A stretch of 64,000 bases of DNA. Source: a bacterium. Lineage in GTDB: Bacteria > Actinomycetota > Acidimicrobiia > Spongiisociales > ZC4RG35. Position numbers and translations under genes: made by a program. The notes under the pieces are model-generated. The model was not told where the DNA came from. It worked only from the letters and a program-made list of their open reading frames with translations, and ran no database searches. Positions 9,011 through 64,000 of the stretch are shown here, in pieces. The stretch is taken from contig JAPPLW010000004.1 in NCBI GenBank assembly GCA_028819345.1, forward strand, positions 3,530 to 67,529, read 5' to 3'. The stretch's first letter is position 1. Every line of letters begins with the position of its first letter.

Positions 9011-11275
9011 CTACGGCAGTCCGATGCTGGGATCGATGAACTCGTTGGTGACGATGTCGGTGGCCGTCACGTTCGGGTCCCAGGTCTCCAGTCCCTGCGG
9101 GCCGTAGATGTCGGCCAGAAGGGCGATCACCTCGTTGACCCGATCCAGGTCGAAGTCGCCGAGGGTGTCGTTGGGACCGTTCCCGATCAGGCCCAACTCG
9201 AGCTGGGCGTCGTGGGAGAACTGGGCCACTCCGGGACTGTATGTCCAGAAGCTCTCCAGCGCGGCCACGATCTCGACGATCTGGGCGTTGGTGGCGGCCG
9301 GGTCGGCGGCGTAGTCCACCTGGGCCTGTTGCACTAGGGGCACGAACAGCTCCCAGCACTCGCGGTACTCCTCGACGATGTCGGGCTTGGTGGCCAACAA
9401 CTGCGCGTACATCTCCAAGCCGGAGTCGTGGATCAGCATGAAGTCCACCGGCTTGCCCCAGTCCTCGAACTCGTACTGGTACTGGAAGGGTTCAGCCGAA
9501 GCGAATCCCTGCTGTACGAGGTTGCCCTCGGCGATGAACCGGGCGGGCGACCCGTCGTAGGAAGCGTCGATCTGGTCTTCGGTGACCCAGCCCCTACCCA
9601 ACAGGAAGTCGATGTAGGTGGCGCCCTCGAAATATAGGAGGGTCCCGTCGTTCGCTCTGAGCTGATCGCCCAAGTCCTCGAAACTCTCCAAACTGTATAC
9701 CTCGGGATCCCACATCACGATCTGGGGGTTCTTGTCGCGGGGGGCGACGATTCCCAGGGTGGGCTGGGAGCCATAGAGTCTCACCTGCTCATCGGTGTTG
9801 GTGTACGCCAGGTGGATCGACGGGTCCTGGTAGAGGAGCGAGATGTCGTTCTGGAAGCCGATGTATGGGCCGCCGGCCCGGACTTCCAGCATCACGCCGG
9901 TGTCGCCGATCTCGTTGGTGTAGGTCCCGTTAGTGGAGTCGATCACGCCTCCAGGACCGGCCAGGTGGTACAACTCGGAGTGCTCGGCCTCGGGGAACCA
10001 GTCGGTCTGGACCACGATCGTGGCGGGGCACACATCAGCCAGGGAAGCCATGGCCATGTCGTCCATGTCCATCGAGGGCAGTCCGATGCTCGGGTCGATG
10101 AACTCGTTGGTGACGATGTCGGTGGCTGTGACGTTCGGATCCCAGGTCTCCAGTCCCTGCGGACCGTAGATGTCGGCCAGCAGGGCGATGACCTCGTTGA
10201 CCCGATCAAGGTCGAAGTCGCCGAGGGTGTCGTTGGGGCCGTTCCCGATCAGGCCCAACTCGAGTTGGGCGTCATGGGAGAACTGCGCCACTCCCGGGCT
10301 GTAGGTCCAGAAGCTCTCCAGCGCGGCCACGATCTCGACGATCTGTGCGTTGGTGGCGGCCGGGTCGGCGGCGTAGTCCACTTGAGCCTGCTGCACCAGG
10401 GGCACGAACAGTTCCCAGCACTCGCGGTGTTCCTCGATGATGTCGGGCTTGGTGGCCAGCAGCTGCGCGTACATCTCCAAGCCGGAGTCGTGGATCAGCA
10501 TGATCTCGACCGGCTTGCCCCAGTCCTGGAACTCGTTCTGGTACATGTACGGCTCGGCAGAGGCGAATCCCTGCTGTACCAGGTTGCCCTCGGCGATGAA
10601 CCGGGCGGGAGACCCGTCGTATGAGGCGTCGACCTGGTCTTCGGACACCCAACCCTTGCCCAGCAGGTAATCGATGTAGGTGGCTCCCTCGAAATAGAGG
10701 AGGGTCGCCCCCGACGCGCCGATGTCGGCGAAGCTGTCGAAGGAGTACACGGCCGGGTCCCACATCACCATCTGGGGGTTCTTCTCGCGAGGAGCGACGA
10801 TGCCCAGAGTGGGTTGGGAAGCGGAGAGTCTCACCTGCTCATCGGTGTTGGTGTACGCCAGGTGGATCGACGAATCCTGGTAGAGGAGCGAGATGTCGTT
10901 CTGGAAGCCGATGTAGGGGCCGCCGGCCCGGACTTCCAGCATCACGCCCGTGTTACCGATCTCGTTGGTGTAGGTCCCGTTGGTGGAGTCGATCACGCCG
11001 CCCGGACCGGCCAGGTGGTACAACTCCGAGTGCTCGGCCTCGGGGAACCAGTCGGTCTGGACCACGATCGTGGCGGGGCACACATCAGCCAGGGCCACGT
11101 CCGGCATTGCTGCGGTGGTCTCGGTGGGTGCTGCCGTGGTGGCCGGCGCGGCGGTGGTGGCCGGCGCGGCGGTGGTCTCGGCGACTTCCTCGTCACCGTC
11201 TCCGCAGGCCGCTACGACCAGGGCCAGCACAGCCAAGGCGGCCAGCCACCTCGGCACCTTGCGATGGTTCTTCAT
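9011..11275 (-). CDS. lipoprotein: tandem double NMT1/THI5 (ThiY/SsuA-like) ABC substrate-binding protein
   Basis: ORF 9011..11377. ATG 11275 gives MKNHRKVPRWLAALAVLALVVAACGDG (lipobox LVVAAC). Two consecutive ~340-aa near-identical binding-protein modules follow. Downstream of the permease and ATPase genes of the same family. Confidence 0.85.
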   Translation of the reverse strand: MKNHRKVPRWLAALAVLALVVAACGDGDEEVAETTAAPATTAAPATTAAPTETTAAMPDVALADVCPATIVVQTDWFPEAEHSELYHLAGPGGVIDSTNGTYTNEIGNTGVMLEVRAGGPYIGFQNDISLLYQDSSIHLAYTNTDEQVRLSASQPTLGIVAPREKNPQMVMWDPAVYSFDSFADIGASGATLLYFEGATYIDYLLGKGWVSEDQVDASYDGSPARFIAEGNLVQQGFASAEPYMYQNEFQDWGKPVEIMLIHDSGLEMYAQLLATKPDIIEEHRECWELFVPLVQQAQVDYAADPAATNAQIVEIVAALESFWTYSPGVAQFSHDAQLELGLIGNGPNDTLGDFDLDRVNEVIALLADIYGPQGLETWDPNVTATDIVTNEFIDPSIGLPSMDMDDMAMASLADVCPATIVVQTDWFPEAEHSELYHLAGPGGVIDSTNGTYTNEIGDTGVMLEVRAGGPYIGFQNDISLLYQDPSIHLAYTNTDEQVRLYGSQPTLGIVAPRDKNPQIVMWDPEVYSLESFEDLGDQLRANDGTLLYFEGATYIDFLLGRGWVTEDQIDASYDGSPARFIAEGNLVQQGFASAEPFQYQYEFEDWGKPVDFMLIHDSGLEMYAQLLATKPDIVEEYRECWELFVPLVQQAQVDYAADPAATNAQIVEIVAALESFWTYSPGVAQFSHDAQLELGLIGNGPNDTLGDFDLDRVNEVIALLADIYGPQGLETWDPNVTATDIVTNEFIDPSIGLP
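9014..11092 (-). repeat. intragenic tandem duplication: two ~1.02 kb units (9014..10042 and 10076..11092) joined by a 33-nt linker
   Basis: DNA at 9015.. and 10077.. aligns by eye (offset 1062 nt at the 3' ends, 1050 nt at the 5' ends, so a 12-nt indel). The two protein halves start LADVCPATIVVQTDWFPEAEHSELYHLAGPGG and end NEFIDPSIGLP. Confidence 0.9.
11138..11173 (-). repeat. 18-nt tandem repeat (x2, plus a degenerate third copy) encoding the PATTAA linker after the lipobox
   Basis: ggtggccggcgcggcggt occurs twice in a row on the + strand. Translation on the minus strand is TTAAPATTAAPATTAAPTETTAA. Confidence 0.6.
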
Positions 11276-11351
11276 GTTGAATCTCCTTTCGTTCGAACCC
11301 TTGAGGTCTTGTCGTCTGAATGCGTCATTTAAGATTGGTCGACAGTGGCTT

Positions 11352-12158
11352 TCAGGTGGTTTCGTGCCATTTTCCAACTACCAGCCTACCCAGGAAACCG
11401 AATCCCCAGAAAACCAGAATGCCCAGCAGAGAGGAGAAGACCAGAGCGGTGAAAAGCTGTTCGGTGAGCAGCCGGGCCCGGTAGAGGTCGAGCAATCTTC
11501 CCAAACCGGGGATCCCCTTGCGGAAGAAGAACTCGCCGACGATGGCGCCGATTACCGAGAGACCTGCTGAAATACGGAACCCGGCGAAAATGGCGGGGAG
11601 GGCATTGGGAAACTGGAGCTTCACCAGGCGGGTCAGCCGGCTTGACCGGTGCAAAGTGAAGAGGTCATGGAAGGAGGCGGGCACCGACTGGAGACCGAAG
11701 AGGGTGTTGGTGATGATCGGGAAAATGGAGATGATCACGCACACCACCACCCGGCTGGTGAACCCGAACCCGAGCCACAGACCCACCAGGGGAACGATGG
11801 CCAGGATGGGCACGGTCTGGATGATCACCGCGTAGGGGTAGAAGGAGGTCTCCACCCACTTGGCCTGGCTCATCATGATGGCCGAAGTCATTCCCAGCAC
11901 TATGGCGATCACCAGGCCGGTCATGGAGACCGCCACCGTCCAGAGCAGTCCCTCCAGCACTTGGAACAGGTTGTCCTGGTTGACGAAACCGACGTCTATC
12001 ACCTCGTTCGGGGTGGGCAGCAGGAACTGCCGGTCGGGATCGAGGCTCAGGCTGATGGCGTACCAGATGCCCAACACCACGAGGAACACCACGATCGGGG
12101 GTCCCAGCCGGTAAGTGGAGGAGCGGAGCCGGGAGGAGGTGTGTCGGGCGGTGCTCAT
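11352..12158 (-). CDS. ABC transporter permease (nitrate/sulfonate/taurine NitT/TauT family)
   Basis: Six hydrophobic segments and the EAA-like loop LTRLVKLQFPNALPAIFAGFRISAGLSVIGAIVGEF. Abuts the ATPase gene (stop 12159 / start 12158). Confidence 0.85.
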   Translation of the reverse strand: MSTARHTSSRLRSSTYRLGPPIVVFLVVLGIWYAISLSLDPDRQFLLPTPNEVIDVGFVNQDNLFQVLEGLLWTVAVSMTGLVIAIVLGMTSAIMMSQAKWVETSFYPYAVIIQTVPILAIVPLVGLWLGFGFTSRVVVCVIISIFPIITNTLFGLQSVPASFHDLFTLHRSSRLTRLVKLQFPNALPAIFAGFRISAGLSVIGAIVGEFFFRKGIPGLGRLLDLYRARLLTEQLFTALVFSSLLGILVFWGFGFLGRLVVGKWHETT

Positions 12159-32884: not shown

Positions 32885-34153
32885 ATGGCGAACCGGTCCG
32901 TGCGAGGGGCGTTCCTGGCCGCCTACCGGGCGGCCCTCCGCTCGGTGGATCCCTGCCTCGTTACCGAGAGGAACCTGTCAGGTTCCGGGGAGCGGCTGGA
33001 AGTGGGAGGCCATATGGTCGAAGCCAGGCGGGGAGTGCGGATCCTGGCGGTGGGGAAGGCGGCGCACGGCATGGCCCGCGGTGCTGCCGGGTTCCTTTCC
33101 TCCCGCCTGGTGGGCGGCTTGATCATCTCCGATCACCACCGACTCTCTCCCCATCCTCGGCTGAAGGTGATGGTCGGTGATCATCCCTACCCGGGCCGGG
33201 CCAGCCTGGCGGCGGGGCGGGCTGCGCTTTCTCTGGCAGCGGACGGGCATCCCGACGAGTTGCTTCTGGCGCTGGTGTCGGGCGGGGGATCGTCCCTGAT
33301 GGAAGTCCCCGCCCCGGGGATCACCTTCGATGATCTGGCGGCGGCGGGTCGGGCGCTGGTGACCGGGGGAGTCCCCATCTCGGAGATGAACGTGGTCCGC
33401 CGGCATCTCTCTTCCATAAAGGACGGGGGGATAACCCGGATGGCCGGTGGTCGACCTCTGGCCACCCTGCTCATCTCCGATGTGGTGGACGGTCCCGCCT
33501 CGGCGGTGGCCTCCGGTCCCACGCTGGCGGACGGAACAACTGCTGAGGATGCCCGGGCGGTGCTGGCCGCCTACCGGCTGGAGGAGAGGGTGCCGCCCTC
33601 CGTGACGGCCTATCTCGGGTCCTCCCGTCCGGTGGCCCGATCTTCGGTTCGGCGCCCGCACCGGGTGATAGCGGACGGGTTGGAAGCGGCGCGGGCGGCC
33701 TGCGTCGAACTGGGGGCCCGCGGGATTCCGGCCGTGATCGTGACGTCCCCGGTGGTGGGGGAGGCGGCGCCAGCCGCCCGGGAGGCGATGGAAAAGGCCG
33801 TGGCGGGTCAGGTGCGCGTCTACTGGGGGGAAACCACGGTGAGGATCGACGTCTCGGCGCCTGGACGGGGAGGGCGGAACCAGCACGCCGCCCTGGTGGC
33901 CGCCGGGAGGCTGGCCGAGCGGGGACGGGGGGTCTTCGGAGGCTTCGCAACCGACGGCGTGGACGGCGACAGCGACGCCGCCGGGGGTTTGGTGGACTCC
34001 GGGACCATCGAGCGGGGCAGAGCCGCCGGCCTCGATTGGCGGGAACACCTCCGCCGTTACGACTCCTCTTCCTTTCTGGCCTCTTCGGGCGACCTGGTTG
34101 TCACCGGGCCCACCGGCGTCAACGTGGGCGACCTGTGGTTGGTGGCAGGATGA
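32885..34153 (+). CDS. glycerate 2-kinase / hydroxypyruvate reductase family (DUF4147 + MOFRL domains)
   Basis: 3' part of ORF 32510..34153; ATG 32885 lies 2 nt after the PIG-L stop. ILAVGKAAHGMA, LVSGGGSSL, RRHLSSIKDGG, LLISDVVD, GGRNQHAAL and ATDGVDGDSDAAG are present. Confidence 0.8.
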   Translation: MANRSVRGAFLAAYRAALRSVDPCLVTERNLSGSGERLEVGGHMVEARRGVRILAVGKAAHGMARGAAGFLSSRLVGGLIISDHHRLSPHPRLKVMVGDHPYPGRASLAAGRAALSLAADGHPDELLLALVSGGGSSLMEVPAPGITFDDLAAAGRALVTGGVPISEMNVVRRHLSSIKDGGITRMAGGRPLATLLISDVVDGPASAVASGPTLADGTTAEDARAVLAAYRLEERVPPSVTAYLGSSRPVARSSVRRPHRVIADGLEAARAACVELGARGIPAVIVTSPVVGEAAPAAREAMEKAVAGQVRVYWGETTVRIDVSAPGRGGRNQHAALVAAGRLAERGRGVFGGFATDGVDGDSDAAGGLVDSGTIERGRAAGLDWREHLRRYDSSSFLASSGDLVVTGPTGVNVGDLWLVAG

Positions 34154-51086: not shown

Positions 51087-52073
51087 CTACTCGGGCGACG
51101 GGCGACGGGCTTTCGCCAACACCTCGTCGATCGAGCTTCGGTCCACATCGCCCAGATTCTGGACATAGTCGTAGCCGAACCGGCCCTTGATGCACAGATG
51201 GCCGTTGGTCACGTCGTGGTCCTGGGGGGAGGTCACCTTCACGATCCGGTTGTCCTGGGTGTGCAGCTCCAGGTTGCAGCCCACCCCGCAGTAGGAGCAG
51301 ACCGTCCGGGTGACCGACTGGGCGTCCGGGTTCCACATCTCCGCCCGCCGCAGTTCCCACTCGGAGCGGAACATGAGAGCGCCTGTGGGACAGACCCCGA
51401 TGCAGTTGCCACAGAACACGCAGGCCCCGTCGCCCAGGGGAAGATCCATCTCGGTTGAGATCCGGGCGTCGAACCCCCGGCCGGCCACCGCAATGGCGTA
51501 GGTCCCCTGCGCGTCGATCCCGCACGCCTCCACGCATTTGTAACAGAGGATGCAGCGGGAGTAGTCGCGGACATAGAGGGTGTTGTCCACCTTGGTCGGC
51601 TGATGAACGCCTTCGGCGGTCCGGCCGTTTACCTCGCCGTGATGTCCCGGATGGCGCCGGTCCCTCTCGCCGGCAGCGCTGGGCTCCGACTGCGGGCCGT
51701 AGCGGTCCGGCTCGGCTTCGTATTGGCGCATCCACTCTCCGACCTCGTCTTCGGCCGCCGAGAGGTCGACCGAGGAGCCCAGGAATTCCAGGATCATCTT
51801 CCGGCTGTGGCGGACCCTGTCGGAGTCCGTCTTCACCACCATGCCCTCTTCGGCGATCCGTGAACATGCGGGGACCAGGGTGCGGTTGCGTTCCACCTCC
51901 ACCACGCAGATCCGGCACACGTTCACCGGCGTGAGGGTCTCCAGGTAACAGAGGGTCGGCACTTCGGTGCCCATCTGGCGGCATGCCTCCAGGAGAGTGG
52001 CGCCCGGCCGGACTTCCACCGGAGCGCCATCGATGGTCAGGCGCACGGACTGTTGAGTCTCGGGTCGGGTCAT
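51087..52073 (-). CDS. formate dehydrogenase Fe-S protein: NuoG-N-terminal-like clusters plus the Mo/W-bisPGD-type FS0 [4Fe-4S] motif (N-terminal fragment of an FdsA/FdhA-type alpha subunit)
   Basis: ORF 51087..52262; ATG 52073 overlaps the upstream stop (ATGA). 2Fe-2S LCYLETLTPVNVCRICVVEV..PAC, ferredoxin motifs CILCYKCVEAC and CVFCGNCIGVCPTGAL, then CSYCGVGCNLELH...GHLCIKGRFGYDYVQN. It stops after 22 more residues. Confidence 0.8.
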   Translation of the reverse strand: MTRPETQQSVRLTIDGAPVEVRPGATLLEACRQMGTEVPTLCYLETLTPVNVCRICVVEVERNRTLVPACSRIAEEGMVVKTDSDRVRHSRKMILEFLGSSVDLSAAEDEVGEWMRQYEAEPDRYGPQSEPSAAGERDRRHPGHHGEVNGRTAEGVHQPTKVDNTLYVRDYSRCILCYKCVEACGIDAQGTYAIAVAGRGFDARISTEMDLPLGDGACVFCGNCIGVCPTGALMFRSEWELRRAEMWNPDAQSVTRTVCSYCGVGCNLELHTQDNRIVKVTSPQDHDVTNGHLCIKGRFGYDYVQNLGDVDRSSIDEVLAKARRPSPE

Positions 52074-53881
52074 TCCATGAGTCCAAGTTCGAGGGCCGAG
52101 CGCAGCGCGATGGCGGCGGTGTGCCCCAGGCCGCAGATGGATGCGTCCCTCATGGCCAGGTCGATTTCTTCGATCAGTTCCAGGTCTCCGGGCTGGGGGT
52201 CGCGCCGTATTCTCGCCAGCGCCTCTTCGACCCGTACAGTACCAACCCGGCACGGAACGCACTGTCCGCAGGTCTCGTCACGGAAGAAGGCGGCGATCCT
52301 TGCCAGGATGTCTCCGAAGTCGGTGTGCTGATCGAAGGCCATTATCACCCCCGAGCCCAGGGAGACCCCGGCTTCGGAGGCCGCCTCGAAGGTGAGGGGC
52401 ATCTCCAGTAGGTCGGGAAGCACGAAGGAGCCGGCGGCTCCTCCCAGGAGTACGGCCCGCAGCCGGCGGCCCTCGGGTAATCCGCCGGCCAAGGCGATCA
52501 AATCGCCCAGAGTGGCGCCGAACTCCACCTCGTAGGTGCCCGGCCGGCGCACGGATCCCGACAGGCAGAAGAGCTTGGGCCCGGTCGACTGGGGAGTGCC
52601 CAACGAAGCGAAGTTGCTCCCCCCGTCACTGACGATATCGAGGACGTTGCAGAGCGTCTCCACGTTGTTGATGACGGTCGGTTTCCCGAACAGTCCCGAG
52701 ACCGTCGGGAATGGCGGTTTGTTGCGGGGTTCTCCCCGCAGGCCTTCGATGGAGTTCATCAGGGCGGTCTCCTCGCCGCAGATGTACGCGCCCTGCCCGC
52801 GTCGGAGATCGATGTCGAAGGAGACTCCGTTTCTCATCGACTCCCCCAGGAGACCTGCCCGCCGCGCCTGGTGGATGGCTGACCGGAGGCGCCGGGTGGC
52901 CAGGGGGTACTCCCCCCTGATGTAGAGATAGCCCTGGCGTGCGCCGACCGCATAACCGGAGATGGTCATCGCCTCGATCACCGAGAAGGGATCGTCCTCC
53001 ATCAGCACCCGGTCCTTGAAGGTGCCGGGCTCCGACTCGTCGGCGTTGCAGATCAGGTAGCGGACCGCGTCGGGGGAGTTGGCCACCGCCTCCCATTTGA
53101 TCCAGGCGGGGAAGGCCGCCCCGCCCCGTCCGCGGAGACCGGACGCTTTGACCTCGGCCACAACCGCCGCAGGTCCCATCTCCACCGCCTCCTCCAAGGC
53201 CCTGTAGCCGCCCGCCTCCAGGTAGGAGTCGAGGGACCCGGGGTCCACCGTCCCCACCCTCCGCAGGAGCCGGAGATGCGGCTCTCCGGCCTGGGGCACA
53301 GCAAGGCTCTCTGGTTGACCGTTGGTCGAGACGATGCTCCCGTCCGGTTCCATGGGCCGCGCCTGGGGATCGATGGAGACCAGCACATGGTCTTCTTCTC
53401 CGGCCCGCTGGACGTAGGCCGCAGGGGCGCGGTCGCACTGGCCCAGGCAGGGCGAAGGCAGCCAACGGGTGTTGGGTATCCGGCCGTTGGCTTCCAGACC
53501 TTCCATCAACTCCAGGGCCCCGGCCCTGCGACAGACGATGTCGTCACAGACGTGGACAACAACCGGTGGGGAAGGGTCGACCGAGATCAGGGAATAGAAG
53601 GTGGCGACTCCCCAAGCTTCGGCTGGCGGGACCGACAGTTCCCGGCAGATGTGCATCAGCGCTCCCTCCGAGACCCAACCTATCTCGGATTGGACGGTCT
53701 CCAGGGCCGGCAGCAGGAGGTGGCGTCGATCGGCGACGCTCTGCATCCCCGTGGCGAAGATCCTGAGATTGGAGGCGGTCCGGACCCGCTGGTGGCTCTC
53801 CACCCCGGCCGGGCCGAGGACCGACTCCACCGCCTCCCGCTCGGCTGCGGTGGGTTGAGCATCTGTGAAGCGCAGGTCCAT
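52070..53881 (-). CDS. NAD-reducing formate dehydrogenase diaphorase subunit, NuoE-like + NuoF-like fusion (FdsG/FdsB-type)
   Basis: NuoE part: HVCDDIVCRRAG...PCLGQCDRAPA. NuoF part: GLRGRGGAAFPAWIKW, YLICNADESEPGTFKDR, and 4Fe-4S ETCGQCVPCRVG...ICGLGHTA. Confidence 0.85.
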   Translation of the reverse strand: MDLRFTDAQPTAAEREAVESVLGPAGVESHQRVRTASNLRIFATGMQSVADRRHLLLPALETVQSEIGWVSEGALMHICRELSVPPAEAWGVATFYSLISVDPSPPVVVHVCDDIVCRRAGALELMEGLEANGRIPNTRWLPSPCLGQCDRAPAAYVQRAGEEDHVLVSIDPQARPMEPDGSIVSTNGQPESLAVPQAGEPHLRLLRRVGTVDPGSLDSYLEAGGYRALEEAVEMGPAAVVAEVKASGLRGRGGAAFPAWIKWEAVANSPDAVRYLICNADESEPGTFKDRVLMEDDPFSVIEAMTISGYAVGARQGYLYIRGEYPLATRRLRSAIHQARRAGLLGESMRNGVSFDIDLRRGQGAYICGEETALMNSIEGLRGEPRNKPPFPTVSGLFGKPTVINNVETLCNVLDIVSDGGSNFASLGTPQSTGPKLFCLSGSVRRPGTYEVEFGATLGDLIALAGGLPEGRRLRAVLLGGAAGSFVLPDLLEMPLTFEAASEAGVSLGSGVIMAFDQHTDFGDILARIAAFFRDETCGQCVPCRVGTVRVEEALARIRRDPQPGDLELIEEIDLAMRDASICGLGHTAAIALRSALELGLME

Positions 53882-53902
53882 AAGGAGATCGGTGGGCGGA
53901 GG

Positions 53903-55801
53903 TTAGCCAACCGGAGCAGTCATCTTCTCCACTCGCACCGCGGTGGCCTTGAACTCGGCGGTGCCGCTCTTCGGATCCCACGCTTCGATGGTGAGTTGAT
54001 TGATGTCGACTTCCTCAGGGAAGTGAAGGGACATGAAGACCAGCCCGGGCCGCAGGCTCCCGTCCACCCGGGCGGGAACGGTGATGGATCCTCTCCGGGA
54101 CGTGACCCGTACCTCTTCTCCCTCCGAGACCCCCCACTCAGAGCAGTCCTCGGGTGAGATGTCGATGGTGCCGCCGATCCGGATCGGGGACTTCATGGAG
54201 CCGCTCTGGACCCCCGTGTTGTAGGAATCGAGGTGGCGGCCGGTGGTGAGCCGGATGGGATAGTCCTCGGTCAGGCGGTCCACCGGAGGCGCCCACTCCA
54301 CCGGGGTGAAGGGTGCCAGCGGGCCGCCCGGCGGGTCTGCCCACAGGCGGGAATGGAGGAACAGCTCCCCGGGATGGTCCTCGTCGTAGCAGGGCCATTG
54401 CAACCCGTCCTCCTCCAATCGACTGTACGACATGCCCCCGTGCATGGGGGAGAGGCTGCGCATCTCGTCCCAGACCTCCTCGGCGGCCGGGCGACCCCAG
54501 TCATGGCCCATGGCGGTGGCCAGGGAGCAGATGATGTGCGAGTCGGTGCGGGCCTCGCCCGGAGGCCGGAGGGCGGGACGCACCCGCTGCACCCGTCGTT
54601 CGCTGGAAGTGACCGTGCCCTCGGCCTCGCACCAGTCGGCCGCGGCCGGGAACACCACGTCGGCCATCTGGGCGGTCCGGGTCAGGAAGATGTCCTGGAC
54701 CACTATGAAATCCAGTCCCTCCAGGAGGCCGCGGGCCCGGTTGACGTCGGCCTCGGACTCGGCGGGATTCTCTCCGATGACATACAAGCCTCTCAGGTGT
54801 CCCTCTTCCATGGCTTCGAACATCTGGGTGAGGTGAAGTCCCTTGCGAGGCGGGACGGACGCCTGCCATGCCGCTTCGAAACGGCCCCGGATCTCGTCGG
54901 ACTCGACGTCCTGGAAACCGGGGAACTTGTTGGGGATCGCCCCCATGTCGCCGCCCCCCTGCACGTTGTTCTGGCCCCGGAGGGGCACCAGGCCCGACCC
55001 GTAGCGGCCCACGTGTCCGCAGAGCAGGGCCAGGTTGATGAGAGCCAGCACATTGTCGGTGGCGTTGTGATGCTCGGTTATTCCCAGCGTCCAGCACAAC
55101 TGGGCGCGATCGGCCTTTGCGTAGGTATGGGCCAGGGAGCGGATGGCTTCGGCGGGTACGCCGGTGACCTCCTCGCCGCGTTCGAGGGTCCACTCCTCCA
55201 CGCTTTCGGCGTATTCGTCGAAGTTGAGGGTCGCCCGCTCGATGAACTCCCGGTTCTCCAGTCCATTTGCCAGGATCTCGCGGGCCACCGCGTTGGAGAG
55301 GGCGATGTCGGACCCGACGTCGATTCCCAGCCACAGGTCGGCCCATTCCGCGGACTCGCTCCGCCGAGGGTCCACGCAGAACAAGGTGGCGCCGCGGCGG
55401 ACCGCCCGGATGATCCGGTGAAAGAAGATGGGATGTGCGGCCCGGGCGTTCGATCCCCACAGGATCACCACCTCTGCGTCATCCATCTCCTCATAGGAAC
55501 TGGTTCCCCCTCCGGCTCCGAAAACCGTCGCCAGACCGGCGACGCTGGGAGCGTGTCAGGTCCGGTTACAGGAATCTACGTTGTTGGTGCTCAACACCAC
55601 CCGAGCGAACTTCTGTGCCAGATAGTTGGTCTCGTTGGTGGCCTTGGAGCAGGAAAACAGCCCTATAGCCTCTCCGCCGTGAGCATCGCGCACCCCGCCC
55701 AGGCCACGGGCCGCCGCGGCCAGAGCCTCGGCCCAGGTGGCTTGTCGAAGTGCGCCGTTCTGTCGCACCAGCGGATGGGTCAGCCGGGTCTTTCTTCCCA
55801 T
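53903..55801 (-). CDS. fdhA: formate dehydrogenase catalytic (Mo/W-bisPGD) subunit, selenocysteine-containing, lacking the N-terminal FS0 cluster domain
   Basis: Joins track ORFs 55556..55852 and 53903..55486 through the in-frame TGA 55558..55556: ...STNNVDSCNRT-U-HAPSVAGLATVFGAGGGTSSYEEMDDAEVVILWGSNA..., which parallels the FdhF NNVDCCARV-U-HGPSVAGL site. ATG 55801 lies 6 nt after AAGGAGAG. The C-terminal molybdopterin dinucleotide-binding domain is present. Confidence 0.8.
55515..55558 (-). other. UGA selenocysteine codon plus downstream SECIS-like stem-loop
   Basis: The mRNA reads UGA CAC GCUCC cag CGUCGCC GGUCU GGCGACG guuuuc GGAGC. There is a 7-bp upper stem (55544..55538 / 55532..55526), a GGUCU apical loop and a 5-bp lower stem (55552..55548 / 55519..55515), starting 14 nt after the UGA. 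Confidence 0.65.
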
Positions 55802-55918
55802 TCTTGACTCTCCTTGACTTGAAGGGGCTGGTCCGGCCCCATGGGGGAGCATTTTAGCAATCTGTAAAGAGGGGGCTCACCGTTCGACGCGGAGAATCGA
55901 GCGGCCGCCGGGCCGATC

Positions 55919-57685
55919 TCAGAACAGGCCCACCACCTTACCGGACGAGTCGAGATCCACATTGAGATAGGCCGGCGCTGACGAGAGGCCGGGCATGGTG
56001 CGCACCGCGCCGACCAACGGATAGATGAACCCGGCTCCCACCGAGGCGCGCACTTCCCGGATGGGCAGCGTGTATCCCCGCGGCGCCCCCCTGAGACTGG
56101 GGTCATGGCTGATCGAGAGGTGGGTTTTGGCCATGCAGATCGGCAGGTCACCGAACCCGGCCTGCTCGTACTGGGCGAGTTGACGGTTGGCCAGGGCGGT
56201 GTACGAGACATCCGCCGCGCCGTAGACCTTCCGGGCGATGGTCGAGATCTTCTCCTTGAGGGACAGTTCATCGGGGTAGAGCAGGGAGAAGTCGCCCGGT
56301 AGGGTGCAGGCGTCCTCGACCGCCTCGGCCATCTCCAGGGCGCCCTGGCCTCCGTTGGCCCAGTGGGTGGTGGCGGCGACGGCATGGGCTCCGGCCTCGG
56401 AGGCCGCCGCCCGGAGGTATTCGATCTCCCGCTCGGTGTCGGTGGGAAACACGTTCACCGCCACCACGGCCGGCACCCCGAACTGCTTCACGTTGTTGAG
56501 GTGGGCCTGGAGGTTTGCCACGCCTTCTCCCAGCAACTCCAGGTTCTCCTCGACGTAGGCTCTGGGCAGGGGCCGCCCCGGTCTCACCGGCGGGCCTCCT
56601 CCCTGGGCTTTGAGGGCTCGGATGGTGGTGGTCAGCACCACGCAGTCCGGGACCAGCCCCGAGGTCCGGCATTTTATGTTGAAGAACTTCTCCATTCCCA
56701 TGTCGGCGCCGAACCCCGACTCGGTGACCACGTAGTCGGACAGTTGGAGGGCCACCCGGTCGGCCAGCACCGAAGAATTTCCGTGGGCGATGTTGGCGAA
56801 GGGCCCGGCGTGCACGAAGACCCCCTGTCCCTCCAGGGTCTGCATCAGGGTCGGATGAAGAGCGTCCTTCATCAGCACTGTCACCGCTCCCGCCACCCCC
56901 AGGTCCTCAAGGGTGAGCGGATCCCCACCCTTGGACGTGCCGAACACGATCTTCCCGCAACGCTCCCTCAGGTTGCGGAGAGCGGAGGCGTAGTCCTGTC
57001 CGTCCACCAGCGCCAGGATGGCCATGATCTCGCTCGCTACCGTGATGTCATAGCCGGTTTCCCGCGGCAGCCCGTCGGCCCGGCCTCCCAGTCCCAGCAC
57101 GATGCTGCGAAGGGCCCGGTCGTTCACGTCGACGACCCGCCGCCACAGGATGCGGTGCTGGTCGATATTCAGACGCTTCAGTCCCCTCTCCGCCAGTTTC
57201 GCGTCGCTGAGCCTCTCCTCGAAGTACCAGCGGGCGTCGATGGCGGCGGCCGCCAGGTTGTGGGCCACCCCGATGGCGTGCAGGTCACCGGTCAGGTGAA
57301 GGTTGAACTCCTCCATGGGGATCACCTGGCTGTAGCCACCTCCCGCTGCACCTCCCTTGATGCCGAAGGTGGGACCCATGCTGGGCTGGCGAATGCAGGC
57401 CATCACGTCTCGACCCCGGGCTCCCAGGCCCTGGGTCAGGCCGATGGTGGTGGTGGTCTTCCCCTCCCCGAGGGGAGTCGGAGTGATGGCGGTCACGTCC
57501 ACGTAGCGGCCCCGCGGGCGGTTGCGAACCCGCTTCAGGATGTCGAGGTGCACCTTGGCCTTGTCGTGCCCGTAGGGGATCAGCTCTTCGGTTCTGATTC
57601 CCACCCGGTCGGCTATGTCGGTGATGGGAATTACCTGGGCGGCTTGGGCGATGTCCAGGTCGGAGGGGATGGGGGACGAGTTCAA
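55919..57685 (-). CDS. fhs: formate--tetrahydrofolate ligase
   Basis: PTPLGEGKTTTTIGL, EFNLHLTGD.HA, and the C-terminal MAKT.LS.S and G.I.TMPGL patterns at 588 aa are classic FTHFS. Confidence 0.95.
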   Translation of the reverse strand: MNSSPIPSDLDIAQAAQVIPITDIADRVGIRTEELIPYGHDKAKVHLDILKRVRNRPRGRYVDVTAITPTPLGEGKTTTTIGLTQGLGARGRDVMACIRQPSMGPTFGIKGGAAGGGYSQVIPMEEFNLHLTGDLHAIGVAHNLAAAAIDARWYFEERLSDAKLAERGLKRLNIDQHRILWRRVVDVNDRALRSIVLGLGGRADGLPRETGYDITVASEIMAILALVDGQDYASALRNLRERCGKIVFGTSKGGDPLTLEDLGVAGAVTVLMKDALHPTLMQTLEGQGVFVHAGPFANIAHGNSSVLADRVALQLSDYVVTESGFGADMGMEKFFNIKCRTSGLVPDCVVLTTTIRALKAQGGGPPVRPGRPLPRAYVEENLELLGEGVANLQAHLNNVKQFGVPAVVAVNVFPTDTEREIEYLRAAASEAGAHAVAATTHWANGGQGALEMAEAVEDACTLPGDFSLLYPDELSLKEKISTIARKVYGAADVSYTALANRQLAQYEQAGFGDLPICMAKTHLSISHDPSLRGAPRGYTLPIREVRASVGAGFIYPLVGAVRTMPGLSSAPAYLNVDLDSSGKVVGLF

Positions 57686-57945
57686 GGGGCGCCTCCTGGG
57701 CTCGGGGGATTCGGTATCGCAAGTGACACCGCCGCATCGGTTTTACATAATGTTAACCCATTGGCAGGGTGTTTGGCATTCCGACGGCCCTCTTTCTGGA
57801 AGCGGGGTTGTGGAAAGGCCGCGCCGCCGACGGCGTCGGCGACCGGATTCCGGGGTGGGGAGGAAGGGTTTTGTTATGGGGGTGGGCGTTTCTAATCTTT
57901 CACATAGGCCGTGGCAGCGCTCTATTTCCTGGTGACAACCCTCTG

Positions 57946-59061
57946 ATGGACTGGGTGGATCTGTTATTGGTGGCTGCCCGCGTGGTGGGGGTGTTCGCCC
58001 TGCTGGTGGTGCTCACCATCGTCAACATCTGGTTGGAGCGCAAGGTCGTGGCGGACATGCAGAACCGCGTGGGGCCGGCCCGGGCGGGGCCATGGGGGAT
58101 ACTCCAGACCCTCGCCGACGGGGTGAAGTTGTTCTTCAAGGAGCAGGTGACGCCGCGGAAGGTGGACCTGGGCGCCTACCTGCTGGCGCCTTTCCTGGCG
58201 GTGGTCCCGGCCTTCTTGATCTTCATGATGGTTCCCCTCGGTCCGGGCCTCGAGATCGCGGGTCGCCAGGTGCCGCTTCAGGGAGCGGACCTGAACATCG
58301 GGATCCTGTTCATCCTGGCGATGTCGTCGATGGCCGTGTACGCGGTGGTGCTGGCCGGGTGGTCGTCGGGGTCCAAGTACCCGTTGCTGGGAGGCGTGCG
58401 GGCCACCGCGCAGGCCATCTCCTACGAGGCGGCCATGGGTCTGGCGATGGTGGCGGTCGTGATGTTCTCCGCCACCGCTCCCGGGGCCGAGAGCGGGACC
58501 CTCTCCCTCGCCGAGATCGTGGAGCGCCAGTCGGGGACCTGGTCGGGGACGGTTGCCTTCCTCGACCCGGTGGTGAGCTTCATTCCCCGTTGGTATGTCT
58601 TCCCCCAGGTGGTGGCGTTCGTGATCTTTTTCCTGGCGGCGGTGGCGGAGACCAACCGGGCGCCGTTCGACCTGGTGGAGGCGGAGCAGGAGTTGGTGGG
58701 CGGATTCCACACCGAGTACTCGGGAATCCGCTTCGCCATGTTCTTTCTGGCCGAGTACATCAACATCCTCTCCATGTGCGCCATCGCCGCCACGCTCTTC
58801 TTTGGCGGGTGGAACGGCCCGACCTGGGAAGGAGTCGTCCCCGGGTGGGTTTCGGCCATCCTGCCCGTGGTGTGGCTGATGTTGAAGAGCTATGTGCTGG
58901 TGGTTGCGTTCTTCTGGATCAGGGCCACGCTCCCGCGGTTGCGCTACGACCAGTTGATGACCCTGGGGTGGAAGCGGTTGATACCGGCCTCGATGCTGTG
59001 GCTGGTGATCTCCACCGTGGTGATCGGGTTCCGCCAGTTCGGGCTTCCCTTTATAGGGTGA
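57946..59061 (+). CDS. nuoH: NADH-quinone oxidoreductase subunit H
   Basis: ORF 57769..59061; ATG 57946. ERKVVADMQNRVGPARAGPWGILQTLADGVKLFFKE, ETNRAPFDLVEAEQELVGGFHTEYSG and LPRLRYDQLM are present. Confidence 0.9.
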   Translation: MDWVDLLLVAARVVGVFALLVVLTIVNIWLERKVVADMQNRVGPARAGPWGILQTLADGVKLFFKEQVTPRKVDLGAYLLAPFLAVVPAFLIFMMVPLGPGLEIAGRQVPLQGADLNIGILFILAMSSMAVYAVVLAGWSSGSKYPLLGGVRATAQAISYEAAMGLAMVAVVMFSATAPGAESGTLSLAEIVERQSGTWSGTVAFLDPVVSFIPRWYVFPQVVAFVIFFLAAVAETNRAPFDLVEAEQELVGGFHTEYSGIRFAMFFLAEYINILSMCAIAATLFFGGWNGPTWEGVVPGWVSAILPVVWLMLKSYVLVVAFFWIRATLPRLRYDQLMTLGWKRLIPASMLWLVISTVVIGFRQFGLPFIG

Positions 59062-59069
59062 GGTGAGAA

Positions 59070-59708
59070 ATGGGAATACTGAGAGAATTCTGGAAGGGCT
59101 TCAAGGTAACCGGCTCGATAGGGCTGCGAGGTTTCTTCGGCAAAGACATCGTCACCACCCGGTACCCCTCGGAGATGCGGGAGAAGCCCACCCGGTTCCA
59201 TGGTCGCCACGTCCTTAACCGCTATCCCGACGGAATGGAGAAGTGCATCGGATGCGAACTTTGCGCGGGGGCCTGCCCGGCTCGATGCATCTACGTGCGG
59301 GGGGCGGACAACCCGCCCGATGACCCCCGGAGTCCGGGAGAGCGCTTCGGGTACGTGTATGAGATCAACATGCTGCGCTGCATCTTCTGCGGGCTGTGCG
59401 TGGAGGCCTGTCCGACGGAGGCCATCACCATGACCCACCTCTTCGAGATGTCGGTGACCAACCGCAACGACGCCATCCACACCAGGAAGGAACTGTTGAT
59501 GGCGGAGGACGGGTCGGTTCCCCACATCTACCCCGAGGACCCGTTCGCCGACCTCTCCGAACTGGACGCCGCCGACGGCTGGCTGCGGGCCACTTCTCCC
59601 AGCGGCGTAGCGGCCTACGAGGGGGAGACCATGTGGCAGGCCACCCCCGGCCCGGCCTCCTGGACGCCCGAGCCCGATCAGGAGACCAGGGACTCCCAGC
59701 ATGGTTGA
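59070..59708 (+). CDS. nuoI: NADH-quinone oxidoreductase subunit I (2x[4Fe-4S]) with C-terminal extension
   Basis: CIGCELCAGACPARCI and CIFCGLCVEACPTEAI, followed by a ~70-aa tail. Confidence 0.9.
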   Translation: MGILREFWKGFKVTGSIGLRGFFGKDIVTTRYPSEMREKPTRFHGRHVLNRYPDGMEKCIGCELCAGACPARCIYVRGADNPPDDPRSPGERFGYVYEINMLRCIFCGLCVEACPTEAITMTHLFEMSVTNRNDAIHTRKELLMAEDGSVPHIYPEDPFADLSELDAADGWLRATSPSGVAAYEGETMWQATPGPASWTPEPDQETRDSQHG

Positions 59709-60234
59709 ACTGGTGATCTTCGTGCTGATGGGGGCGGGGACATTGGCCGGCGGGGTGACGGTGGTCCTGGCCCGCAACCCGGTCCGCTCCGCGTTGGGTC
59801 TCCTGGGAGCCTTGGTCTCCCTGGCTGTCATATACGTGGTCAACCTGGCCCACCTGGTGGCTGCCGTGCAGGTGGTGGTTTATGCGGGAGCGGTGTTGAC
59901 TCTGTTCCTGTTCGTGATCATGTTCATCGGCGTGGACCGCGCCGAGGACACTTCCGAGACCATCCCCCTCCAGCGCAAACTGGTGGCCGGGCTCGCCACC
60001 GTGGTGGCCCTGGGAGCGGCGGTCCTGGTGTCGAGGGGCCGGTTCACCTGGACCCCCGCTTCGGGGGAGGCGGCCGAGATCCCCAACGGCACGGTTCAGG
60101 CTCTGGGAGGAGAGCTCTTCACCACCTGGGTGCTGGGAGTTGAGGTGACCGCTCTGTTGCTGACCATCGCCGCGGTGGGGGCGATCGCCCTGGCTTTCCA
60201 CCGACGGTCCGCCGAGTCGCCGACGGAGGACTGA
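59701..60234 (+). CDS. nuoJ: NADH-quinone oxidoreductase subunit J
   Basis: Five hydrophobic helices. [10 protein letters not shown] and [16 protein letters not shown] are typical NuoJ. Position between nuoI and nuoK. Confidence 0.85.
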
Positions 60235-60538
60235 TGCCCGTCGTAACCCCGGGCTGGTACATGACGCTGGCGGCCGTCCTGTTCGTCCTGGGGATGACCG
60301 GGGTCCTGATCAGACGGAACGCCCTGGTGATGTTCATGTGCGTGGAGTTGATGCTCAATGCGGTCAACCTGACCTTCGTGGCCGCCGGCCGGGCGGCGGG
60401 AGTGCTGGACGGGCAGGTGGCGGTGTTCTTCGTGCTGGTGGTGGCGGCCGCCGAGGTGGTGGTGGGCCTGGCCATCATCGTCGCCATATTCAGGAGGCGG
60501 GAGACCGCCTCCGTCGACGAGTTGGCGGCGCTCCGGGG

Positions 60539-60542
<4 letters not shown>
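60234..60542 (+). CDS. nuoK: NADH-quinone oxidoreductase subunit K
   Basis: 102 aa with [31 protein letters not shown] and [11 protein letters not shown]. Confidence 0.9.
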
Positions 60543-62440
<1,898 letters not shown>

Positions 62441-62450
62441 GTCGCCGGCC

Positions 62451-63995
62451 ATGCTGACCCTGCTGGTTCTCACGCCCCTCCTGGGGGCGGTGGTGGTCTC
62501 CCTGGTCCCGGCCCGTCGTCGGGAACTGCACCTGCCGCTGGGCATAGCCCTGTCCGTGGCGCCCCTGGGGCTGGCGGGAGCGATGTTTTTCTCCTTCGAC
62601 GCGGGGGAGGCTTCCTTCCAGATGGTCGAGAAGGTGGTGTGGTGGGAACCGTGGGGGGTGTCCTGGCAACTGGGCGTGGACGGGATCTCGCTGGGGATGG
62701 TGGCTCTCACGGCCATCCTGTTCCCCCTCAGCCTGGCGGTCTCCGACTCCATCTCCCACCGGCGCAAGGCATTCGTGGTGGCCATGCTCTTTCTGGAGAC
62801 GGGCCTGATCGGCACCTTCCTCGCCCTGGACCTGCTGCTGTTCTTCGTGTTCTTCGAGGTGATCCTGGTCCCCATGTACCTGATAATCGGTGTGTGGGGA
62901 GGCAAGCGCCGGGTTTACGCGGCCGTGAAGTTCTTCATCTACACCGCGTTCGGTTCGGCGCTGCTGCTGGCGGCGATCATCGCCCTGGCTGTCATGCATG
63001 CCTCCCAGGCCCCCGACGGCCTGCTCAGCTTTGACTACCTGGCTTTGCTGGCTCTGGACATCTCTCCGACCGCCCAGATGTGGCTGTTCGGAGCATTCGC
63101 CCTGGCCTTCGCCATCAAGGTGCCCCTGTTTCCCTTCCACACCTGGCTTCCCGACGCCCATGTGGAAGCGCCCACGGCCGGGTCGGTGCTCCTGGCGGGA
63201 GTCCTCCTGAAGCTCGGAACATACGGGTTGCTCCGGTTCAACCTCACGCTCTTTCCCGAGGCCACGGTCTCCCTGGTGCCGGTCCTGGCGGTCCTGGCCG
63301 TGGTGGGAATCATCTACGGGGCGGTGGTGGCCATCGTCCAGCCCGACCTGAAGAAGTTGGTCGCCTATTCGTCGGTCAGCCACCTGGGGTTCGTGGTGCT
63401 GGGGATTTTCGCCCTCACTTCAGCCGGACTCCAGGGCGCGGTTATTCAGAACGTCAACCACGGGCTCACCACCGGCGCGCTGTTCCTCCTCGTCGGGATG
63501 CTGTATGACCGGCGTCACACCAAACAGATCAGCGACTTCGGGGGCCTGGCCACACCGGCTCCCCTCATGGCCGGGTTCTTCCTGTTCATGGCCTTCGCCT
63601 CCATCGGCCTGCCCGGTCTCAACGGGTTCGTGGGGGAATTCCTGGTGTTGGTGGGTAGCTTCCCCTCTCTTCCGGGCCTGACGGTGGTGGCGGCGTTCGG
63701 CGTCGTGCTGGCCGCCATATACATGTTGTGGGCCTACCAGCGGGTGTTCACGGGACCGCTGAAGGGAGCCGAGAACCGGAAACTCACCGACCTCTCGGCC
63801 AAGGAGACGGCGGTGATGGCGCCCCTGGCGGCCTTGGTCTTGCTGCTTGGCCTGTATCCGGGCATCCTCCTGGAGCGGACCGCTCCATCCGTGGAGGCGA
63901 TTCTCGACCGCATCGAGCAGTACACCGACTATGAGGCGCCCGATCCGGGAAGATTGGCGGACGTTTTCAACACCGCCTCGGAGGATGAATCGTGA
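62451..63995 (+). CDS. nuoM: NADH-quinone oxidoreductase subunit M
   Basis: FFEVILVPMYLIIGVWGG, KVPLFPFHTWLPDAHVEAPTAGSVLLAGVLLKLGTYG and KKLVAYSSVSHLGF are present. Confidence 0.9.
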   Translation: MLTLLVLTPLLGAVVVSLVPARRRELHLPLGIALSVAPLGLAGAMFFSFDAGEASFQMVEKVVWWEPWGVSWQLGVDGISLGMVALTAILFPLSLAVSDSISHRRKAFVVAMLFLETGLIGTFLALDLLLFFVFFEVILVPMYLIIGVWGGKRRVYAAVKFFIYTAFGSALLLAAIIALAVMHASQAPDGLLSFDYLALLALDISPTAQMWLFGAFALAFAIKVPLFPFHTWLPDAHVEAPTAGSVLLAGVLLKLGTYGLLRFNLTLFPEATVSLVPVLAVLAVVGIIYGAVVAIVQPDLKKLVAYSSVSHLGFVVLGIFALTSAGLQGAVIQNVNHGLTTGALFLLVGMLYDRRHTKQISDFGGLATPAPLMAGFFLFMAFASIGLPGLNGFVGEFLVLVGSFPSLPGLTVVAAFGVVLAAIYMLWAYQRVFTGPLKGAENRKLTDLSAKETAVMAPLAALVLLLGLYPGILLERTAPSVEAILDRIEQYTDYEAPDPGRLADVFNTASEDES

Positions 63996-64000
63996 TCCCC
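63992..64000 (+). CDS. nuoN: probable start of nuoN (only 9 nt visible)
   Basis: GTG at 63992 overlaps the nuoM stop (GTGA), and nuoN is the expected next gene. No sequence is available to confirm it. Confidence 0.3.

Follow-up and report, generated by a model that had tools for sequence, protein, structure and literature searches.

We identified three consecutive genes on the minus strand of a 64,000-nucleotide (nt) stretch of bacterial DNA (positions 3,530 to 67,529 of contig JAPPLW010000004.1, hereafter the window). They very probably encode a functional, cytoplasmic, NAD+-linked formate dehydrogenase (FDH) of the three-subunit FDH3 type, with selenocysteine (Sec) and a molybdenum or tungsten bis-pyranopterin guanine dinucleotide (Mo/W-bisPGD) in the active site. 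The proximal [4Fe-4S] cluster, FS0, is encoded with the small iron-sulfur (Fe-S) subunit, and its module would complete the catalytic subunit in trans. An initial annotation of this DNA had proposed a functional heteromeric enzyme that carries FS0 on one polypeptide and the Mo site on another, and this is by far the best reading of the locus. An in-frame TGA and the loss of one Fe-S cluster were absent from that annotation.

Gene structure and complementary breakpoints

The features discussed below are as follows.

53903..55801, minus strand: catalytic subunit (FdhA3-like), 632 amino acids (aa) if the TGA is read through; Pfam PF00384 and PF01568 only
55808..55815, minus strand: Shine-Dalgarno sequence AAGGAGAG of the catalytic gene, read from the sequence, with a 6-nt spacer to the ATG at 55801
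55556..55558, minus strand: in-frame TGA, read as the Sec codon at residue 82 (context SCNRT-TGA-HAPS, the active-site Cys/Sec position)
55515..55558, minus strand: predicted bacterial selenocysteine insertion sequence (SECIS), upper hairpin 55543-55538 / 55532-55527, loop GGUCU 55537-55533
55552-55548 / 55519-55515, minus strand: weaker lower helix of the SECIS, partly supported (pair 15-48 unpaired in 22/61 sequences)
52070..53881, minus strand: NuoE-NuoF fusion (FdhB3-like diaphorase), 603 aa; Pfam PF01257 2Fe-2S_thioredx, PF01512 Complex1_51K, SLBB and PF10589 NADH_4Fe-4S
51087..52073, minus strand: small Fe-S subunit (FdhC3-like), 328 aa; Fer2_4, 2x[4Fe-4S] ferredoxin domain and Molybdop_Fe4S4
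51579..51776, minus strand: Cys-free insert of the small subunit (residues ~100-165, HPGHH at 141-145) in place of the His/Cys3 [4Fe-4S] cluster (A4 of Rhodobacter capsulatus FdsA, N5 of complex I)
51156..51317, minus strand: FS0 (proximal [4Fe-4S]) domain of the small subunit, PF04879 Molybdop_Fe4S4, residues 253-306
51090..51155, minus strand: 22-aa C-terminal tail LGDVDRSSIDEVLAKARRPSPE of the small subunit, which resembles catalytic residues ~15-33
55919..57685, minus strand: fhs (formate-tetrahydrofolate ligase), a 588-aa open reading frame (ORF) directly upstream of the catalytic gene

The positions of the three genes, the strong Shine-Dalgarno sequence of the first, and the ATGA at which the small-gene ATG overlaps the nuoEF stop were all confirmed from the sequence. 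Residues 3-624 of the catalytic protein match positions 50-672 of the 672-position model TIGR01591 (NCBIfam Fdh-alpha) with 647.5 bits, just under the full-length cut-off of 666.25 bits because positions 1-49 are missing. Those positions are found on the small subunit: its residues 257-306 correspond to TIGR01591 positions 1-50, and the catalytic protein takes over at position 50. Thus, the breakpoints are exactly complementary, as had been proposed. The same junction is seen in alignments to single-chain proteins. On FdsA of R. capsulatus (6tg9_A), residues 9-307 of the small subunit align to 24-306 and residues 5-630 of the catalytic subunit to 307-937. On a fused homologue (P0257, 911 aa), alignment of the small protein runs to residue 278 (...CIKGRYAYDFVHH) and that of the catalytic protein starts from 281 (RLTRPLIRR), which leaves two residues between them. 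On solved FdhF-type relatives, the catalytic protein aligns from their residue ~61-64.

The active-site motifs of the catalytic subunit are intact (Sec82-His83, and Arg275 in LRGQNN), and its U-H and RGQ motifs place it in the FdhF/FdsA-like active-site class of Arias-Cartin et al. (PMC8808070). Neither Pfam nor inspection of the sequence identified an Fe-S or cysteine cluster motif in this protein, and Pfam identified no other redox cofactor motif. Nor is a cysteine motif encoded in the 117-nt gap from the fhs stop to the catalytic ATG, so the view that this protein has no FS0, either within it or upstream of 55801, holds. The second gene is a NuoE-NuoF fusion by its Pfam domains (440 bits against the nuoF model TIGR01959), with intact ligands for the [2Fe-2S] cluster (C112/117/145/149), the flavin mononucleotide (FMN) motif GRGGAAFP at 251-258, and an N3-type [4Fe-4S] site (C538/541/544/583). 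The small subunit resembles HoxU (NF005745, 137 bits) and NuoG (TIGR01973, 147 bits); its Fer2_4, two-[4Fe-4S] and Molybdop_Fe4S4 domains bear out its description as a NuoG-N-terminal-like protein with a C-terminal FS0. Searches of the window with all three proteins (tblastn) found no second FDH, nuoE, nuoF or nuoG, and so no intact fdsA elsewhere in it. Motifs and ligands are kept in both pieces, and the genes are conserved in relatives, as the claim that both are intact implies. This supports a reading in which one alpha-subunit sequence is spread over two genes, both intact and conserved.

The cut was initially placed at a domain boundary. It does coincide with a Pfam domain boundary, but structural domain I of FdhH includes the FS0 segment, and the cut would then fall inside a three-dimensional domain. 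One possible history is that an FdsA-type ORF was cut and a part of it translocated, either the catalytic half to an upstream position or the Fe-S half to a downstream one.

The 22-aa tail of the small subunit may carry a trace of this event. It had been described as non-conserved, which is true of the relatives in which it is absent or variable, but in those labelled Acidimicrobiia or Nitriliruptoria, and only there, it is conserved as LGDLxxTPIDxVLxxAR. A profile of the tail was slid along 61 catalytic subunits, about 610 positions each. The segment xG.L....WDEAL..AA.G (residues ~15-33) was the top match in 39 of the 61 and among the top three in 54, compared with a mean of 0.25/61 and a maximum of 20 for column-shuffled tails in 500 shuffles, although the 61 subunits are homologous and the test is therefore effectively one comparison. 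In fused enzymes this segment comes after FS0, past the RLTxPLVR block. The resemblance suggests that the tail may be a remnant copy of the junction, which would fit fission by duplication and degeneration better than a clean cut.

Conservation, selenocysteine and cluster ligands

The arrangement is not peculiar to this genome: at least 567 relatives were found in a scan in which each GTDB species was represented by one genome. The loci examined are the best 80 of these, counts of gene order and stop position cover 83 related loci, and taxonomic names are record labels. The order catalytic-nuoEF-small is kept in all 73 of the 83 loci that retain the catalytic gene (70/70 within the best 80), the remaining 10 being contig-truncated or without a catalytic match. 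The small gene is split in 80/80 of the best loci, and in 83/83 its ORF stops 2-81 codons past GRFG(Y/F/W)xxVQ. In about 65 related loci, the region 5' of the catalytic gene was likewise without an FS0 motif. In a close relative (L085), the cassette is followed by genes in the same synteny, but the genes before it differ.

Labels among the best 80 of at least 567 include Actinomycetota (Acidimicrobiia, Nitriliruptoraceae, Thermoleophilia, Gaiellales and Geodermatophilaceae), Chloroflexota, Acidobacteriota, Gemmatimonadota, Planctomycetota, Eisenbacteria, Bacillota and Binatia. Among these loci are several on Mb-size contigs and complete chromosomes, and those of the cultured carriers Pseudonocardia yunnanensis, P. 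ammonioxydans and Actinomycetospora rhizophila. The family appears to be common in Actinomycetota, Chloroflexota, Acidobacteriota and Gemmatimonadota. In a search of protein clusters, the small subunit matched at least 120, with identities of 68-87%; the clusters listed are 314-338 aa long except for one of 392 aa, and all have Fer2_4, Fer4 and Molybdop_Fe4S4 and none a Molybdopterin domain. The few that are named carry the labels Acidimicrobiia, Actinomycetota, Euzebyales or Ca. Poriferisocius. The best 150 matches of the representative search include many gene fragments, and lengths are of limited use there.

In a few loci, miscellaneous genes lie between the catalytic gene and nuoEF (DUF5946, GYD, an SLT/SBP protein, an MFS transporter). 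The DUF5946 gene occupies this place in two metagenome-assembled genomes, one labelled Limnocylindrales and one Chloroflexia (L017 4289-4783 and L035 4517-4945). In four metagenomic proteins (P0155, P0201, P0233 and P0259), a NuoF-like C-terminal part is joined to a small-subunit-like part in one chain. They could be genuine NuoEF-small fusions or products of faulty gene calling where stop and start overlap.

Gene callers split the catalytic gene at the in-frame TGA, giving products of 81 and 527 aa. We read this TGA as a selenocysteine codon and not as a defect. The codon is TGA in 69/69 related loci where the site is readable, and Cys in none. Thirteen nucleotides 3' of the TGA starts a 6-bp upper hairpin, 99.2% paired over 61 distinct sequences (alignment A3), with an invariant GGUCU loop. 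Two of its pairs show double compensatory changes (C-G to G-C in 6 sequences, G-C to A-U in 3), and one pair occurs as U-G, C-G or U-A. The whole structure is 96.1% paired, compared with 28-69% in slid controls. The single-sequence fold of the region 3' of the UGA is no better than shuffles (z = -0.07), so support for the SECIS rests on covariation; Rfam at gathering thresholds gave no match in the window. The SECIS of E. coli fdhF has a GGUC loop in the same register after its UGA as the window element.

One related locus (L084 7001-9715) encodes a fused Sec-containing FDH alpha subunit (P0214), called as genes of 362 and 525 aa that are split at the TGA. Its NuoG-like N-terminus also seems to be without the His-ligated cluster motif, and there is no adjoining nuoEF. 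Fused relatives with Sec, such as this one, weaken the case for a link between splitting and Sec use.

The FS0 motif of the small subunit lies at residues 259-297, with ligands C259/C262/C266/C294 (cluster A1 in FdsA nomenclature). The other ligands are those of two ferredoxin-type [4Fe-4S] clusters, A2 and A3 (C174/177/180/184 and C218/221/224/228), and of a [2Fe-2S] cluster, A5 (C42/53/56/70). All ligand cysteines of the four clusters and the FS0 lysine are invariant across the family (sequence alignments A1, A2 and A4 for the cysteines). That lysine, Lys296 in C-I-K-G, corresponds to Lys44 of E. coli FdhH, where each tested substitution kills activity save Arg, which keeps 7.1% (PMC12176258). 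An essential residue adjacent to the active site would therefore also be supplied in trans. With FS0 on a separate protein from the Mo site, the first electron-transfer step would cross a subunit interface.

In the R. capsulatus enzyme (RcFDH), electrons pass from bis-molybdopterin guanine dinucleotide (bis-MGD) through A1 (FS0), A2, A3, A5 ([2Fe-2S]) and B6 to FMN, and the His-ligated A4 cluster (His117/Cys121/124/130) lies off this path, at the dimer interface (Radon et al., PMC7171172). We conclude from the alignments that the family has lost A4. The small subunit has no PF10588 match, and an A4 motif (H-x3-C-x2-C-x5-C) is absent from it and from 83 homologues (0/83). In its place is an insert of ~65 residues, devoid of Cys, whose counterpart in the FdsA alignment is the ISDHPLDCLTCAANGDCELQ region. 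The stretch is Cys-free in 71/83 homologues and includes GHH in 69/83, and it has conserved family motifs (SSVDLS, ERD.R..GHH and QP.KVDN.LYVRDY). Given that A1, A2, A3 and A5 are kept and the lost A4 is off-pathway, the main electron wire would be intact.

Proposed enzyme, alternative readings and known systems

We predict that the Mo/Sec82-His83-Arg275 site, on the 632-aa, Fe-S-free subunit, oxidises formate. Electrons would cross the subunit interface to FS0, bound with the adjacent Lys296 by the C-terminal 55-residue module of the 328-aa subunit, a module that would complete the fold of the catalytic subunit in trans. They would pass on via the two ferredoxin-type [4Fe-4S] clusters and the [2Fe-2S] cluster of the same subunit to the N3-type [4Fe-4S] cluster and FMN of the NuoE-NuoF fusion, where NAD+ would be reduced. 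We infer both this path and the physiological direction of the predicted FDH; formate oxidation, for example of one-carbon (C1) units released through Fhs, is favoured.

Several points weigh against this enzyme. Complex formation, acceptor and metal rest on homology for all members of the family. An AlphaFold2 model of the small subunit (40-sequence alignment) was too poor to use (mean pLDDT 52, pTM 0.43). The window encodes no selA, selB, selD, tRNA-Sec or fdhD within its 64 kb, as judged by ARAGORN, which found no tRNA, and by Pfam scans of 40 other ORFs, which found no sel, fdhD, fdsD or molybdenum cofactor biosynthesis genes. No obvious Shine-Dalgarno sequence precedes nuoEF. The link to FDH3 was made by sizes and through a congener, A. 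rhizophila (L037; best-segment identity 62% for the small and 65% for the catalytic subunit).

The locus could instead be an assembly artefact, or a decayed single fdsA in which the TGA marks a pseudogene, given that gene callers split the catalytic gene at this codon and that the window is a metagenome scaffold, ENA ROBB21-1_SAMN13943215 scaffold_558. We give this next to no credence. The same break, order and TGA recur in about 70-80 independent assemblies, including complete chromosomes and isolates, the cofactor ligands are invariant, the SECIS has compensatory changes, and the protein products were detected in A. chiangmaiensis. An artefact is effectively excluded by the related genomes, and conservation and covariation effectively refute the pseudogene as well. 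It is also very unlikely that NuoEF and the small subunit form a self-contained HoxEFU-like diaphorase whose FS0 is a relic like N7 of NuoG, leaving the catalytic subunit without a proximal cluster or with another partner. Complex I does retain N7 as a disconnected relic of the same motif (PMC7171172), and HoxU-type proteins occur as independent subunits (the NF005745 match). However, the three genes are linked in every locus long enough to show linkage, the A2-equivalent ferredoxin cluster that wires FS0 to the chain is retained, and the catalytic subunit has no other redox cofactor motif. The invariance of the FS0 cysteines and lysine, the latter replaceable in FdhH only by Arg and then with little activity, points the same way.

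Two further alternatives keep the complex and change its function. It might act as a physiological CO2 reductase, supplying formate made with NADH to Fhs and to tetrahydrofolate metabolism or a reductive-glycine route; in the window and several relatives, fhs is the next gene upstream, in the same orientation, and metal-dependent FDHs are reversible (PMC7171172). We consider this unlikely, since most loci, including the close relative L085, lack the fhs linkage, NADH-driven CO2 reduction is thermodynamically unfavourable (formate/CO2 potential -420 mV; PMC7171172), and the A. chiangmaiensis enzyme is associated with formate removal (PMC7176365). An electron-bifurcating (Bfu/HydABC-type) or ferredoxin-coupled FDH would share the NuoE, NuoF and NuoG-N-like subunit types, and the second- and fourth-best solved matches of the small subunit are Bfu-related (8oh5_C and 9bov_A). 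Yet the NuoF part has only FMN, SLBB and the N3 cluster, and looks by Pfam like a simple diaphorase; it has none of the extra ferredoxin-type domains that a Bfu-type enzyme would have, which speaks against bifurcation. Most of the labelled host lineages are aerobic heterotrophs of soil or marine habitats, which we also count against bifurcation, and we regard it as extremely unlikely. The NAD+-linked, formate-oxidising heteromer remains our preferred reading.

The initial annotation knew of no description of such an enzyme, but one was published in 2020. Rohwerder et al. (PMC7176365) reported FDH3 of Actinomycetospora chiangmaiensis DSM 45062, consisting of FdhA3 (640 aa, U80), FdhB3 (614 aa), a NuoE/NuoF fusion, and FdhC3 (316 aa), 'separate but homologous' to the N-terminal Fe-S domain. 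All three proteins were found in proteomics, up 2.2-3.1-fold on 2-hydroxyisobutyrate (2-HIBA); formate removal needed selenium (selenite), and SelA, SelB and SelD were detected (PMC7176365). The window proteins are alike in size (632/603/328 aa), in the position of Sec (U82), in the NuoE+NuoF fusion as beta subunit, and in the separate small protein homologous to the N-terminal Fe-S domain of FdsA/Fdh1A. We assign the window operon to the same kind as FDH3 because its subunit sizes and Sec position agree and the congener (L037) has the cassette. It differs in its lineage (probably Acidimicrobiia), in following fhs, and in the clade-specific 22-aa tail of its small subunit. The FDH3 paper makes no statement on the FS0 side of the cut, the missing A4 or the wide distribution (PMC7176365).

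The FdsABG(D) enzymes of R. capsulatus and Cupriavidus necator (6tg9/6tga) have the same chain of Mo-bisPGD, FS0 (A1), A2, A3, A5, NuoF [4Fe-4S] and FMN. Unlike the window system, FdsA is a single 958-aa polypeptide with active-site Cys386, rather than two polypeptides with Sec, and it has A4; FdsG and FdsB are separate, whereas NuoE and NuoF are fused here, and neither fdsD nor fdsC is adjacent in the window. Fdh1AB of Methylorubrum extorquens AM1 (7vw6/7e5z) is similar in its NuoE-NuoF fusion beta subunit and its soluble, NAD-linked nature (the catalytic subunit matches Fdh1A with 432 bits), but Fdh1A is a single ~990-aa alpha subunit with W and Cys. The single alpha chain of ~950-990 aa that characterises FdsABG and Fdh1AB is thus replaced here by two genes with nuoEF between them. 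Among the closest solved relatives of the catalytic part are E. coli FdhH (FdhF, 1aa6; 497 bits), which has Sec, and FdhF of the hydrogen-dependent CO2 reductase of T. kivui (7qv7_S; 439 bits). The catalytic protein begins at their residue ~61-62, just past FS0. In both, FS0 and Lys44 are on the Mo-site chain, and there is no NuoG-like module. HoxU (of HoxEFU) and the N-terminal part of NuoG likewise provide an Fe-S wire onto a NuoEF flavoprotein, but the window small subunit adds the C-terminal Molybdop_Fe4S4 (FS0) and is without the His-ligated cluster.

A precedent for a Mo/W-bisPGD fold divided over two polypeptides is FwdB/FwdD of formylmethanofuran dehydrogenase (5t5i). In that enzyme it is the C-terminal domain IV that has been separated, with FS0 left on the Mo-binding subunit; in the window, the part separated is the N-terminal FS0 module. 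FwdB matches the window catalytic protein weakly. In Methanothermobacter wolfeii, an extra subunit replaces the C-terminus of FdsA (Radon et al., PMC7171172).

Neighbouring genes and significance

The fhs gene is probably co-transcribed with the three FDH genes. No terminator-like site was found between fhs and the catalytic gene, in a promoter and terminator scan that is uninformative in DNA of such high GC content. PF01268 FTHFS is on record for the identical fhs gene in locus L087, and fhs is also found 5' of the cassette in several relatives (e.g., L001 and L005-L007). Its position hints at a link to tetrahydrofolate C1 metabolism, although the linkage is not conserved across the family. 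Divergent from fhs are nuoH, nuoI, nuoJ, nuoK, nuoL and nuoM (57769-64000, plus strand). The window has no nuoA-G, so the complex I genes seem to be split between loci. A role of the FDH module in feeding complex I, considered because of this adjacency, was dropped, as the adjacency is absent in L085 and L001.

Elsewhere in the window, two long ORFs (9014-11377, 788 aa, and 32981-34048, 356 aa, both on the minus strand) have coding-like codon bias and no Pfam match at E <= 1e-5. A 582-aa protein (3344-5089, plus strand) with a sulfite-oxidase-type Oxidored_molyb domain at 310-461 and a long N-terminal part without a domain is a second, unrelated molybdoenzyme.

The three-subunit arrangement has been published before, and the window operon belongs to a known kind that has hardly been characterised. 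This analysis newly places FS0 and its lysine in trans, and adds the absence of A4, the use of Sec throughout, the spread over phyla and what may be a remnant of the junction; it thereby contributes detail and scope to a kind of system that was already known. Usually, the metal site shares one chain with the proximal [4Fe-4S] cluster and the lysine of that cluster, and to our knowledge no other metal-dependent formate dehydrogenase or Mo-bisPGD enzyme has been reported with FS0 on a separate chain. Full-text literature searches found no statement of FS0 and an essential lysine in trans, no record of the breadth or universal Sec, and no description of a split FDH besides that of Rohwerder et al.

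We see about an even chance that these genes represent a large, essentially unrecognised class of Mo/W-bisPGD enzymes. Such a class would have FS0 and an essential lysine in trans, a Mo/Sec subunit free of Fe-S clusters and universal use of Sec, would span at least eight labelled phyla, and would be hidden from surveys by annotation that truncates at the UGA. Sec dependence was found in every case examined within the family. As gene callers cut the catalytic gene at the UGA, surveys of formate metabolism and of selenium use may undercount the family. The Fe-S-free catalytic subunit could interest enzyme engineers who work on CO2/formate catalysts. If the class is real, the detachable catalytic module and the vestigial tail junction would record the splitting of a cofactor domain by duplication and degeneration, with function kept.

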